A stretch of 64,000 bases of DNA, from assembly GCA_050945495.1 (NCBI GenBank), contig JBMNTA010000001.1, positions 61,075-125,074 on the forward strand, written 5' to 3'. Under the pieces are notes generated by a model. It was not told the DNA's origin. It saw only the letters and a list, made by a program, of their open reading frames with translations, and made no database searches. This document shows, one piece after another, positions 1 through 7,838 of this stretch (position 1 is its first letter; each line of letters starts with the position of its first letter). Made by a program: the position numbers and the translations under genes. Source of the stretch: Saccharofermentanales bacterium. Lineage in GTDB: Bacteria > Bacillota > Clostridia > Saccharofermentanales > DTU023.

Positions 1-814
1 GCATGTTGATGTCGCGGAACAGAATGCCGTACAGCGCGTCGTTCAACATGACGTCCAAGCGCTCCAAGGCGCCCATCACCGCAATCTCCGGCATGCACAG
101 ACCGGAACAGTAATTGCACAACCGCACGTAGCGGCCCAATTCGTCGCCGACCTCGTCCAAAGCGCGCCGCATCAAACGGAAGTTTTCCTGCGTGGCCATG
201 GTGCCGCCGAACCCTTCGGTCGTCGGCCCGTACGGGACGTAGTCCAAGAGGCTCTGTCCCGTCGTCCGAATGACGGCGATGACGTCGGCCCCCTGCCGCG
301 CGCACGCTTTCGCTTGCGTGATGTCTTCGTAGATGTTACCCGTCGCGACGATCGCATACAGCAAGGGACTCGGCCGTTCGCCGAATGCCTTGATCTTCGC
401 ATCGCGTGCGCGCCGATTGGCGCGAATTTTCTCCATCGCCCGAGGCACGCGTTGTTCGGCCCACAATCGACATTCGAAGGGATCGCGGGTTTCCCAACGC
501 GCGAGATCAATCTCGCCGCGGGCCACGCCCTCGGCGATGGCCTGGGGCGAAAGCCCCGTGCCCATCGATCCTTGCGCCAGCCAGTAGGCAACCCCCTGGC
601 CCAACACGCCCCGTTCGTGCAAATGATCCACCAGTACGTTGGGCAACGGCACGTCGAGCTCGTCGACGCCGTCCACGCCGAACAATCGCGCGATCGACCG
701 TTCCACGGTCACCGTGGTGTAGCGGTCCAGCGCGTCCACGACGTCGTCGGCGATGGCCGACGCGGCGTTGCGGGCACGGCGAACTTTATCCCAATCCAGT
801 CTCAGTTCTGCCAT
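1..814 (-). CDS. kamD: Lysine 5,6-aminomutase alpha subunit (KamD), N-terminal part; 3' end runs off the left edge
   Basis: Absent from the ORF track because there is no stop in the window. My minus-strand translation from ATG 814 is MAELRLDWDKVRRARNAASAIADDVVDALDRYTTVTVERSIARLFGVDG...YAIVATGNIYEDITQAKACARQGADVIAVIRTTGQSLLDYVPYGPTTEGFGGTMATQENFRLMRRALDEVG. AAGGAGG lies 4 nt upstream. The start overlaps the upstream gene's stop by 13 nt. The gene sits in a lysine-fermentation context. Confidence 0.8.
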   Translation of the reverse strand, partial: MAELRLDWDKVRRARNAASAIADDVVDALDRYTTVTVERSIARLFGVDGVDELDVPLPNVLVDHLHERGVLGQGVAYWLAQGSMGTGLSPQAIAEGVARGEIDLARWETRDPFECRLWAEQRVPRAMEKIRANRRARDAKIKAFGERPSPLLYAIVATGNIYEDITQAKACARQGADVIAVIRTTGQSLLDYVPYGPTTEGFGGTMATQENFRLMRRALDEVGDELGRYVRLCNYCSGLCMPEIAVMGALERLDVMLNDALYGILFRDINM

Positions 815-3385: not shown

Positions 3386-4684
3386 CTAGGCATACTCGAC
3401 GTCGTCTTCGACTTTGATCTTGCGCAAGAGCACCTCCGGTTCGATCGAAGGTTCTTGCCCTTCCAAAAGCCCCGACACGCCGATCATCTTGATCTTCTGC
3501 TCGCCGCGACAGACCGGGCATTGGCACGGCGTGTCGTCGCGGATCACGGGCTCCGTGTACGTCGTGATGACGCCTTCGTAGTTCCGCAGCACGACCTTGG
3601 TCGGGCTCTGCGAAATCAGGTAATTCGGCATGACGGGGATCTTCCCGCCGCCGCCCGGCGCGTCGACAACAAACGTCGGAACGCAAAAGCCCGACGTGTG
3701 ACCGCGCAGGCCTTCCATGATCTCGATGCCTTTCGACACGGATGTACGGAAGTGCGAGATGCCCACCGACAGGTCGCATTGATAGATGTAGTACGGACGC
3801 ACGCGAATCCACGCGAGGCCGTTCACCAGCCGGCGCATAACGTGCACGCAGTCATTGATGCCGCGCATCAGGACCGATTGGTTGCCCAACGGAATCCCGG
3901 CGTCGGCCATGCGCGCGCAAGCCGCGCGGCTCTCCGGCGTGATTTCATTCGGATGGTTGAACTGCATGTTCACCCACACGGGCTCGTAGCGCTTGAGCAT
4001 CGCACACAGTTCCGGGGTGATGCGCTGCGGCATCACGACGGGCGTCCGGGTGCCCAAGCGAATGATCTCGACGTGCTCAATCGCGCGGAGTTCTTTCAAG
4101 ATGTATTCCAAGCGGTCGTCGCTCATCAGGAGCGCGTCGCCGCCGGACAACAAGACGTCGCGGACGAGCGGGTGCTCGCGGATGTAGTCGATGCAGGCAT
4201 CGATTTCTTCGAGGCTCCGCGCGCCGTCGCGCTCGCCGGCGAGCCGGCGGCGCGTGCAGTGCCGACAATACATCGAGCACATGTCCGTGATCAGAAACAA
4301 GACGCGGTCGGGGTACCGATGCGTCAAGCCGAACACGGGCGAATCGCCGTCTTCTTCCAGCGGATCGTCCAGGTCTTCCTTCGCCAGTTCCGTCTCATGG
4401 ATCGTCGGGACCGCCTGTTTGCGAATCGGATCGTTCGGATCGTCGGGATCGATCAACGTCAAGTAATAGGGCGTGATCGCCATGCGAAATTTTTCCAACG
4501 CCAAGCGCGCGCCCTCGACCTCTTCGTCCGTCATCGGAATCAATCGCTGAAGCTCGTCCAGCGTGGTGATGCGGTGTTTCACCTGCCACGACCACTGATT
4601 CCAATCTTCATCGGGGACGTCGGGAAACAGGTGTTCCCGACGTGCGCGGCCCATCGTGTTTACGTATTTGTCTTCTGCTCTCAT
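3386..4684 (-). CDS. kamA: L-lysine 2,3-aminomutase (radical SAM, PLP)
   Basis: 432 aa. Radical SAM motif CSMYCRHCTRRR. N-terminal WNQWSWQVKHRITTLDEL and PYYLTLIDPDDPNDPIRKQAVP are typical of the KamA family. Confidence 0.93.
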   Translation of the reverse strand: MRAEDKYVNTMGRARREHLFPDVPDEDWNQWSWQVKHRITTLDELQRLIPMTDEEVEGARLALEKFRMAITPYYLTLIDPDDPNDPIRKQAVPTIHETELAKEDLDDPLEEDGDSPVFGLTHRYPDRVLFLITDMCSMYCRHCTRRRLAGERDGARSLEEIDACIDYIREHPLVRDVLLSGGDALLMSDDRLEYILKELRAIEHVEIIRLGTRTPVVMPQRITPELCAMLKRYEPVWVNMQFNHPNEITPESRAACARMADAGIPLGNQSVLMRGINDCVHVMRRLVNGLAWIRVRPYYIYQCDLSVGISHFRTSVSKGIEIMEGLRGHTSGFCVPTFVVDAPGGGGKIPVMPNYLISQSPTKVVLRNYEGVITTYTEPVIRDDTPCQCPVCRGEQKIKMIGVSGLLEGQEPSIEPEVLLRKIKVEDDVEYA

Positions 4685-6629: not shown

Positions 6630-7010
6630 TTATTTCCGCTGTTTGGCTTTCGGCGTGATGCACGTCCCTGTCGCTTGACAGACCAAAACAGGTTCTTCCA
6701 AAACGTCGGCCGCCGAATCCGAGATGTCGGGACGCGGCGTGATGATCTTCCATGCTTCAAATTTCATGCGGCGAGAACTGTTGCCTTCGTCGGTGATCCA
6801 GCCTTTGGCTTCGATGAAGTCGCCGGCCTGAACGGGCGCCAAGAAGTCGACGCTGTCATAAGCTCGAAAGAGCCCTTCATCTCCGTCACGGCGAATCAAT
6901 AATTCGGTCGCGACGTCCCCAAATAGTTTCAACATGTGGGCTCCGTCGACGAGTCCGCCGCCGTAATGGGCGTCGGCGGCACTGATACGAACGCGAATGG
7001 TTGCTTGCAT
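6630..7010 (-). CDS. kal: 3-aminobutyryl-CoA ammonia-lyase (hot-dog fold)
   Basis: 126 aa from ATG 7010 ([32 protein letters not shown]...). GGAGGAGG RBS. The tracked 208-aa ORF extends into the riboswitch leader and is rejected. First gene of the operon. Confidence 0.8.
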
Positions 7011-7036
7011 CTTGTTTCCTCCTCCGGGCTTTTTTA

Positions 7037-7086
7037 CAAAAAATAAAAGCGCTCGCATTTTCCTTTTGAAAAACGCATAGCGCTTC
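7037..7086 (-). terminator. Intrinsic terminator forming the expression platform of the lysine riboswitch
   Basis: Minus-strand RNA AAGCGCUAUGCGUUUUUC-AAAAG-GAAAAUGCGAGCGCUU followed by UUUAUUUUUU. It lies about 25 nt upstream of the kal RBS. Confidence 0.75.
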
Positions 7087-7089
7087 ATG

Positions 7090-7245
7090 CCAAGCATGAC
7101 AGTAAATCGTCCTTCGTCCGACCTACCAGAGATAACGCACGGGATCGCACGCTCCCCTTCGGCAACGGATACTTCAACGCCACCCCGATCCCGGGTCTCG
7201 TCGCGCCTACCCATCCGTCGCGCCTCTATCGTTGGATTGTACGCA
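7090..7245 (-). promoter_or_regulatory. Lysine riboswitch (L-box) aptamer
   Basis: Minus strand reads ...CCAACGAUAGAGGCGCGACGGAUGGGUAGGCGCG...GGGGUGGCGUUGAAGUAUCC...GCCGAAGGGGAGCGUGCG...CUCUGGUAGGUCGG...UUUACUGUCAUGCUUGG. It has the AGAGGCGC, GAAGGGGAGCG and CUGUCA core blocks. P1 pairing is CCAA..GAUAG with CUGUC..UUGG. Matched by eye to the lysC-type L-box. Confidence 0.8.
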
Positions 7246-7303
7246 TCCCGAACCAAATTGTGGCCGTGAGAACTAAGAGGCGTTCCCCCTCGGACGCTTT
7301 AAT

Positions 7304-7311
7304 ATTATACA
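7304..7311 (-). promoter_or_regulatory. Extended -10 promoter element (TGTATAAT) for the riboswitch and lysine operon
   Basis: Minus strand ACATGTATAATATT, about 55 nt upstream of the aptamer. Confidence 0.55.
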
Positions 7312-7421
7312 TGTAAAATATGGCGATCCGCAACCAATTTCAGAAAATTCACCCCATCGCTCCCCCCCGTCTGGTATCATCGACGCACATCATCACATCC
7401 CCGTGTCGAAAGGAGTCGACC

Positions 7422-7838
7422 ATGCGTTCCTACCGCAAAACACTCACCCTCAACACGAAGACGCGCCGCGCCTACGTGAACATCACTTCCCGGGTGCAGG
7501 AAGCCCTCCGCGAAAGCGGCATCCAAGAAGGGCTCTGCCTCGTCAATGCCATGCACATCACCGCCAGCGTTTTCATCAATGACGACGAATCGGGGCTGCA
7601 CCGCGACTTCGAGCGTTGGCTCGAAGGCCTGGCTCCCGAAAAACCATACGAGCAATACGACCACAACGGATACGAAGACAACGCCGACGCCCACTTGAAG
7701 CGCAGCGTGATGGGACGCGAAGTCGTCGTCGCGGTGACGGAAGGCCGCCTCGATTTCGGCCCGTGGGAGCAAATTTTTTACGGCGAATTCGACGGCATGC
7801 GTCCGAAGCGCATTCTCATCAAAATCATCGGCGAATAA
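7422..7838 (+). CDS. yjbQ: YjbQ/UPF0047 family protein (secondary thiamine-phosphate synthase-like)
   Basis: 138 aa from ATG 7422 ([29 protein letters not shown]...[19 protein letters not shown]...RILIKIIGE). AAAGGAG RBS. The tracked start at 7320 lies inside the divergent promoter. Confidence 0.85.

Follow-up and report, generated by a model that had tools for sequence, protein, structure and literature searches.

A probable lysine-activated riboswitch in front of a lysine fermentation operon in an uncultured Saccharofermentanales bacterium

The subject of this analysis is an RNA element that lies directly upstream of kal, the first gene of a lysine fermentation operon, in a 64,000-nucleotide (64-kb) stretch of the genome of a Saccharofermentanales bacterium (assembly GCA_050945495.1, contig JBMNTA010000001.1, positions 61,075 to 125,074), hereafter referred to as the window. 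The element, which is encoded on the minus strand, is very probably (about 85% by our estimate) a transcriptional lysine ON riboswitch, through which lysine would induce its own fermentation operon. The RNA contains a lysine riboswitch (L-box) aptamer, a strand that is shared between the aptamer and an intrinsic terminator, and no antiterminator, and this wiring is conserved in related loci. From these features we infer that lysine is bound, that the control is kinetic, and in which direction the operon responds. An initial annotation, made from the sequence of the window, had proposed an activator-type riboswitch plus terminator in front of lysine fermentation genes, and the aptamer, the operon, and the overlap between the two competing helices probably bear this proposal out.

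The initial annotation had recognized the aptamer from its AGAGGCGC, GCCGAAG, and CUGUCA blocks, all of which are indeed present, and had suggested a covariance-model scan as a check. That scan (cmscan) returned the Rfam family RF00168, the lysine riboswitch, with a score of 52.1 bits and an E-value of 9.2e-11 over model positions 1-182. The score is 22 bits above the gathering score of 30 bits. The lysine riboswitch is the sole Rfam match within the 64-kb window, and a permissive rescan of positions 6990-7430 (E ≤ 5) gave nothing beyond RF00168. On the basis of the alignment and the helix coordinates, all of the conserved RF00168 junction blocks and the helices P1 to P5 can be located in the window aptamer (Table 1). 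The covariance-model alignment sets the 3' strand of P1 as CUAUGC, and the best extended P1 consists of eight pairs with G7076 bulged. This assignment differs from that put forward earlier, in which P1 was formed by CCAA..GAUAG and CUGUC..UUGG. These sequences can indeed pair with each other, but the second of them begins with the CUGUCA junction motif and continues through the 5' side of P5 into its loop. Likewise, the "small competing hairpin" CAUGC-UUG-GCAUG described in the initial annotation is helix P5 itself (7099-7085).

Lysine riboswitches are known from the Thermotoga maritima structures to form a loop-loop (kissing) tertiary contact between L2 and L3. The corresponding 8-mers of the window, CGGGAUCG in L2 (7193-7186) and CGAUCCCG in L3 (7147-7140), are complementary with a shuffle p of 0.01, and in the homologous loops of six relatives (L204-L209) the complement becomes GGGCC/GGCCC, a case of covariation. 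Such complementarity is compatible with an L2-L3 kissing contact rather than structural proof of it. The loop-E (sarcin-ricin) motif of P2 reads GGUA...GAAGU in the window versus AGUA...GAAAGG in the family, with GGGUA located at 7212-7208.

Behind the aptamer, as had been noted from the sequence, is a long terminator with a U-run. Its stem (7084-7048) has a calculated free energy of -19.5 kcal/mol and a z-score of -4.0, and none of 200 shuffled sequences was equally stable. The 5' arm of the terminator begins one nucleotide past P5, at position 7084, and accommodates J5/1 along with all but one of the nine nucleotides in the P1 3' strand. As can be seen from the pair lists, the switching strand thus formed pairs alternatively with 7233-7226 in P1 or with 7059-7048 in the terminator. 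The earlier statement that the 5' arm of the terminator does not overlap the 3' arm of P1 is therefore wrong. Indeed, the ON/OFF logic had been judged unreadable by eye only because P1 was misassigned, and with the corrected P1 it reads as ON. No antiterminator helix between the aptamer and the terminator was found in the folds of the window leader, and no further hairpin occurs in the window between the terminator and the ribosome-binding site (RBS). Given that P1 and the terminator share a strand in the absence of an antiterminator, the two are mutually exclusive, and a P1 helix stabilized by lysine should block termination. In the ligand-free ensemble, the pair probabilities of the terminator are 0.79-1.00 and that of P1 is 0.000. 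Minimum-energy folds calculated by transcript length contain P1 when the 3' end lies at 7070-7060 and the terminator from 7055 on, once the upper part of its 3' arm has been made. Note that a simple promoter/terminator pattern scan missed this terminator, probably because its stem is bulged, and gave no sigma-70 match; the folds were used in its place.

A mechanism can be proposed on these grounds. RNA polymerase would start near 7297 and transcribe the L-box aptamer, and upon emergence of the P1 3' strand (7080-7072), P1 could close the five-way junction. The 3' arm of the terminator (7063-7048) would be synthesized approximately 10-25 nucleotides after the shared strand. Without lysine, nucleation at the free loop-proximal pairs (7071-7068 with 7063-7060) would lead to the displacement of P1, and transcription would stop at the U-tract (7047-7038). 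With lysine, the junction and P1 would be locked, the shared strand occupied, and the terminator blocked, such that the polymerase would read through into kal-kce-kdd-kamABCDE. Under kinetic control, lysine would bind in the short interval between the synthesis of 7072 and that of 7048.

The genes that follow the element are those of the 3,5-diaminohexanoate pathway of lysine fermentation. The order RBS and then kal-kce-kdd-kamA-...-kamD, as first read from the sequence, was substantiated by NCBIfam equivalog matches above cut-off for kal (score/cut-off of 189.7/160), kce (404.6/382), kdd (275.8/200), kamA (609.2/525.4), kamB (277.9/210), and kamC (381.5/300), and by the start of kamD within the window. 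Contig L081, which encodes an identical Kal protein behind an identical 423-nucleotide leader, continues with kamD (521 amino acids) and then kamE (259 amino acids, B12-binding). The set is thus complete, with Kal, Kce, Kdd, KamA, and KamB/C in the window and KamD/E seen by way of L081. The upstream neighbor, yjbQ, is divergent, and the intergenic region of 411 nucleotides is therefore part of the kal operon. The G+C content of the window is ∼59%. Scans of the window for tRNAs and tandem repeats gave nothing relevant.

The wiring was then compared across kal-linked loci and controls. A Kal-protein profile identified 582 Kal-encoding stretches in species-representative genomes, of which the best 80 (L001-L080) were retained. 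In 25 of these best 80 species-level loci a riboswitch lies directly upstream of kal. Twenty-four are confirmed by Rfam with scores of 43.6-101.7 bits, and a profile-HMM (nhmmer) search of all 80 loci added L029 and revealed no riboswitch in the remaining 55. The carriers are Clostridia, Fusobacterium (L018, L025, and L032), and four Anaerolineaceae loci. The riboswitch is absent from every Bacteroidota, Myxococcota, Thermotogota, and Spirochaetota locus among the 80, and lysine fermentation must be controlled by other means in those loci. An overlap was scored when four or more of the six P1 3' nucleotides of the model fell within the 5' arm of the first hairpin with a U-run. By this test, 21 of 25 kal-linked switches (the window and the 24 Rfam-confirmed loci, with L029 outside the set) display the overlap wiring.

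The control set came from a pattern scan of metagenome contigs, which yielded 120 stretches, 98 of them with a recognizable aptamer 3' end. Two of the 98, L115 and L165, proved by chance to be kal-linked, and both show the overlap wiring. The other 96 switches precede asd, dapA, dapB, lysA, or genes for an M20 peptidase, NhaC-type transporters, an ABC binding protein (SBP), or a Na:Ala symporter. In 66 of these the terminator is clear of P1, 22 are without a terminator, and eight were flagged as overlapping. Upon inspection, at least seven of the eight flagged overlaps were rejected as antiterminator helices with weakly U-rich tails that are followed by a compact canonical terminator; L114 is the ambiguous case. 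The share of P1-paired 3'-strand positions that are also paired in the terminator is 76% in the kal group versus 6% in the 96 controls. The 10-mer that makes up the shared strand differs in 23 of 26 kal-linked sequences, and the double complementarity has thus been upheld even as the sequence changed. The aptamer, the shared strand, and the terminator are also kept in close relatives of the window element in spite of differing loop and 3'-arm sequences.

An alignment of the aptamers alone likewise separates the two groups. The nearest neighbor is kal-linked for all 27 of the kal-linked aptamers versus none of the 96 others. The signature of the kal group consists of GGUA at the P2 loop-E motif, where the other aptamers have AGUA, and of a first P5 pair that is U-A in place of C-G. 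The G variant of loop-E is found in 78% of the kal-linked group, whereas A occupies this position in 94% of the sequences elsewhere. In the window, the first pair of P5 is U7099-A7085. This clustering may reflect shared ancestry and transfer with the operon, or else tuning of the switch. After L001, the nearest relatives of the window aptamer are the Anaerolineaceae versions, which share its bulged-G P1, and this closeness hints at transfer together with the operon.

Several observations weigh against an ON switch of the simple kind described here. When folds with and without P1 enforced were compared, as had been suggested in the initial annotation, the terminator state was favored by 10.2 kcal/mol in nearest-neighbor energies, a model that takes no account of tertiary contacts, the L2-L3 kissing pair among them. 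This gap exceeds what lysine binding alone could supply at equilibrium, and thus either kinetic control or a substantial contribution from tertiary contacts would be required. Four of the 25 switches fail the automatic overlap test, namely two from Fusobacterium with no detectable terminator, L073 with a separate terminator, and L012. Of these, L012 failed through the tail rule only, and by eye both it and L029 fit the overlap wiring. In addition, several relatives carry a second terminator whose control is unexplained, and the promoter and the transcription start (∼7297) are predictions from the sequence.

The alternatives must be weighed against the same evidence. Demonstrated lysine riboswitches have been described as OFF switches (PMC11477304), and natural ones as repressing (PMC10974012), so that a classical arrangement in which lysine promotes termination and represses the operon might be expected here as well. 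Such wiring, however, needs a terminator that is compatible with P1 and, in competition with both, an antiterminator. In the window, the terminator uses the P1 3' strand as its 5' arm, and coexistence is thus impossible. Among the controls, the terminator is clear of P1 in 66 of 96, and at least seven of the eight flagged cases have an antiterminator and a separate terminator, whereas the window has no such arrangement. Repression of lysine catabolism by lysine would, moreover, be physiologically senseless, and an OFF switch is accordingly considered very unlikely. No more credible is a decayed or nonfunctional aptamer, with the hairpin serving as a constitutive attenuator or left over as a terminator. 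The 52-bit Rfam score does lie near the bottom of the range of the relatives (44-102 bits), but it is still 22 bits over the threshold. The L2-L3 complementarity is intact and covaries in relatives, and the aptamer, shared strand, and terminator persist in close relatives whose loop and 3'-arm sequences have diverged. The hairpin ends no upstream gene, since that gene is divergent, and a constitutive terminator would silence a nine-gene operon.

Control exerted chiefly at the level of translation, by masking of the RBS in one or the other of the alternative folds, has the least to commend it. The leader loop CCUCU (7280-7276) could pair with the GGAGG of the RBS, and in some minimum-energy folds the far 5' leader is weakly paired with the RBS region. 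The RBS, however, lies 13 nucleotides past the U-tract and outside both of the alternative helices, a canonical U-tract follows the hairpin with which P1 competes, and the CCUCU loop is missing in L204-L209, which retain the terminator. A somewhat better case, albeit still an improbable one, can be made for the same ON mechanism with another ligand, such as a pathway intermediate (for example β-lysine) or another basic amino acid, or with a markedly shifted affinity for lysine. It draws on the separate cluster formed by the kal-linked aptamers (27 of 27 versus 0 of 96) and on the GGUA and U-A signature. The aptamer retains every conserved junction block of RF00168, however, and the signature columns lie in peripheral helices, where common descent with the operon accounts for them just as well. 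Lysine fermentation would also be expected to have lysine as its physiological inducer. A lysine ON riboswitch acting on transcription therefore remains the preferred reading, and the features on which it is built are listed in Table 1 together with those of the surrounding region.

Table 1. Coordinates of the features in and around the kal leader (window positions; for the second terminators, positions in the respective loci).
Feature	Position	Strand	Basis or remark
L-box aptamer, five-helix junction P1-P5	7236-7070	-	cmscan, RF00168
P1 5' strand AACGAUAG	7233-7226	-	cmscan alignment and pair list
P1 3' strand CUAUGCGUU (CUAU-G-CGUU)	7080-7072	-	pairs with 7233-7226
P2/P2a/P2b arm	7221-7162	-	distal loop with CGGGAUCG
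P3 arm	7158-7128	-	loop with CGAUCCCG
P4 arm	7127-7101	-	cmscan alignment, helix coordinates
P5 hairpin UCAUGC-UUG-GCAUGA	7099-7085	-	cmscan alignment, helix coordinates
Junction block AGAGGCGC (AGAGGNGC block of RF00168)	7227-7220	-	sequence and cmscan alignment
Junction block GCCGAAG	7163-7157	-	present in window
Junction block CUGG	7129-7126	-	present in window
Junction block CUGUCA	7102-7097	-	present; runs into P5 5' strand
Junction block AG.GCUA	7084-7078	-	present in window
Switching strand: J5/1 AGCG (7084-7081) and P1 3' strand (7080-7072)	7084-7072	-	
Intrinsic terminator	7084-7038	-	16 pairs, A7078 bulged
Terminator 5' arm	7084-7068	-	fold
Terminator loop	7067-7064	-	fold
Terminator 3' arm	7063-7048	-	fold
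U-tract UUUAUUUUUU	7047-7038	-	9 U out of 10
Putative promoter, -35-like TTGCGG	7333-7328	-	sequence; 18-nt spacer
Putative promoter, -10 TATAAT	7309-7304	-	sequence
5' leader before aptamer	7297-7237	-	sequence
Small leader hairpin GAAC-GCCUCUUA-GUUC	7285-7270	-	sequence; CCUCU loop at 7280-7276
RBS GGAGGAGG	7025-7018	-	sequence
kal start codon ATG	7010-7008	-	sequence; gene call on identical contig agrees
kal, 3-aminobutyryl-CoA ammonia lyase	7010-6630	-	NCBIfam equivalog
kce, 3-keto-5-aminohexanoate cleavage enzyme	6629-5784	-	NCBIfam equivalog
kdd, 3,5-diaminohexanoate dehydrogenase	5824-4730 (open reading frame)	-	NCBIfam equivalog
kamA, lysine 2,3-aminomutase	4684-3386	-	NCBIfam equivalog
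kamB, reactivase subunit	3385-2309	-	NCBIfam equivalog
kamC, reactivase subunit	2403-802 (open reading frame)	-	NCBIfam equivalog
kamD	from ∼814, running off window	-	N-terminus seen
Second terminator, L010	∼3930-3985		after first terminator, upstream of kal
Second terminator, L021	∼3935-3975		after first terminator, upstream of kal
Second terminator, L041	∼315-360		after first terminator, upstream of kal
Second terminator, L043	∼3825-3870		after first terminator, upstream of kal
Second terminator, L038	∼585-640		after first terminator, upstream of kal

The -10 hexamer of the putative promoter is kept in close relatives; the promoter was not called by the simple sigma-70 scan because its -35 element is weak. 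The CCUCU loop of the small leader hairpin is complementary both to AGAGG of the aptamer core (7227-7223) and to the RBS. The same loop occurs in L001 and L210 on a different stem (GGCA-CCUCUA-UGCC), and it does not occur in L204-L209. A general role for this hairpin was considered and dropped, the loop being missing in six of nine close relatives and in the wider set.

Some of the kal-linked loci depart from the common pattern. In L073 (3900-3990) the hairpin that holds the P1 3' strand is without a good U-run, and in L042 (3850-3950) the U-run is only weak. A separate canonical terminator that does not overlap P1 follows in both, and the simple ON model accounts for neither. The L-boxes of L029 (3745-3990) and L012 (3741-3916) are variants in which one extra base interrupts the most conserved block (AGAGGUUGC). 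A regular-expression prefilter built on AGAGGNGC missed both of them on account of this core insertion and was replaced by the nhmmer profile search. L029 falls below the Rfam gathering threshold or filters, yet it has a full terminator overlapping P1; surveys based on Rfam would overlook variants of this type. A multi-locus Rfam call over 140 kb at the gathering threshold failed to report the riboswitch of L001 (3766-3937), which scored 59.4 bits when searched alone (600 nucleotides). This miss is a filter effect, and the speed filters can lose G+C-rich members.

Two terminators, each a hairpin with a U-run, follow one another in the kal leaders of five loci from gut or rumen Clostridia (L010, L021, L041, L043, and L038). 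The AGCGCUAU core of J5/1 and the P1 3' strand recurs in the 5' arm of the second terminator, exactly in four of the five and as GCGCUAU in L038, and in L043 and L041 P5 sequence is repeated as well. The second terminator could be a second lysine checkpoint or the remnant of a duplicated riboswitch. Two models for its action, namely an exchange of the P1 3' strand and the use of the freed 3' arm of the first terminator as an antiterminator of the second, were rejected in that neither fits all five loci. A broader and decidedly tentative proposal is that the kal-linked switches constitute an ON subclass of their own within the L-box family, one that moves horizontally. Such a subclass would have its own aptamer signature and a terminator built on J5/1 and the P1 3' strand, would travel with the operon among Clostridia, Fusobacteria, and Anaerolineae, and would need more lysine to respond than the biosynthetic OFF switches do. 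Some gut Clostridia may possess a two-terminator relay in which a second copy of the AGCGCUAU strand is put to use. If this doubtful proposal were to hold, the window element would represent a ready-made natural lysine-ON part.

The prediction of lysine-activated LYS elements upstream of lysine-catabolic genes goes back, according to Barrick and Breaker (2007) (PMC2258182), to Rodionov et al. (2003), and lysine riboswitches upstream of kal/kce in Clostridium sticklandii, Fusobacterium nucleatum, and Thermoanaerobacter were later termed positively regulated (Mukherjee 2017, PMC5584792). Through these two papers, the first of which relays the 2003 work by citation, the earlier prediction mentioned in the initial annotation is borne out indirectly. 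The literature searched contained no experiment in which a natural lysine ON switch was tested, and this absence is not proof that none exists. The apparent paradox of a lysine riboswitch in front of these genes disappears in that a catabolic operon would be switched on rather than a biosynthetic one switched off, and the wiring is legible in the sequence. The resulting polarity rule, whereby a P1 3' strand inside the terminator 5' arm indicates an ON switch, split the kal-linked switches from those linked to biosynthesis or transport almost perfectly, and it could be employed to annotate riboswitch polarity in metagenomes. Furthermore, the presence of the element marks the fermentation of lysine to butyrate and acetate as being under regulation in uncultured Saccharofermentanales and Anaerolineaceae. 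Engineers obtain lysine-ON switches by selection, natural ones being regarded as repressing only (PMC10974012), and a validated natural ON switch of the kal-linked family would directly serve metabolic engineering.

The closest known counterparts are the L-boxes predicted for the kamA/kal/kce genes of Thermoanaerobacter tengcongensis, F. nucleatum, and C. sticklandii. These belong to the same aptamer family and pathway, with kal as the first gene, and share the predicted ON logic and the direct competition between aptamer and terminator. The window element differs from them in its host, an uncultured Saccharofermentanales (Clostridia) metagenome-assembled genome of ∼59% G+C. It also differs in having no intervening pspF-type regulator gene, one transcript apparently spanning kal to kamE, and in the bulged G of its P1, which is common to the Anaerolineaceae versions. 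In addition, the earlier reports covered a handful of genomes, whereas the present survey found the riboswitch in 25 of the best 80 species-level loci and included a control set. The lysC riboswitch of Bacillus subtilis (Sudarsan 2003, Grundy 2003) is of the same RF00168 family, with the five-way junction, the L2-L3 contact, and an intrinsic terminator. It is, however, a transcriptional OFF switch in which the P1 3' strand, an antiterminator, and a separate terminator compete, and lysine brings about termination. In the window, by contrast, the antiterminator is missing, the terminator itself competes with P1, the logic is inverted, and the genes are catabolic rather than biosynthetic.

In its platform, the window element resembles the adenine ON switch of B. 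subtilis pbuE (ydhL), in which nucleotides on the 3' side of the aptamer also belong to the 5' arm of the terminator and no antiterminator intervenes. Kinetic control is expected for both. The pbuE switch differs in its unrelated purine aptamer, which is built on a three-way junction, and in its ligand and its gene, which encodes an efflux pump. In the earlier literature the adenine, glycine, and lysine ON switches were grouped together, and the ON logic of some lysine riboswitches was attributed to the burying of pieces of the terminator (PMC2258182). The glycine ON riboswitch of gcvT displays the same physiology, in that an amino acid in excess induces its own degradation (PMC11477304), and differs in its aptamer, which is usually a tandem pair, and in its pathway, the glycine cleavage system. 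The wiring described here has been predicted since 2003, and the window element is a clean new example of it rather than a new kind of switch.

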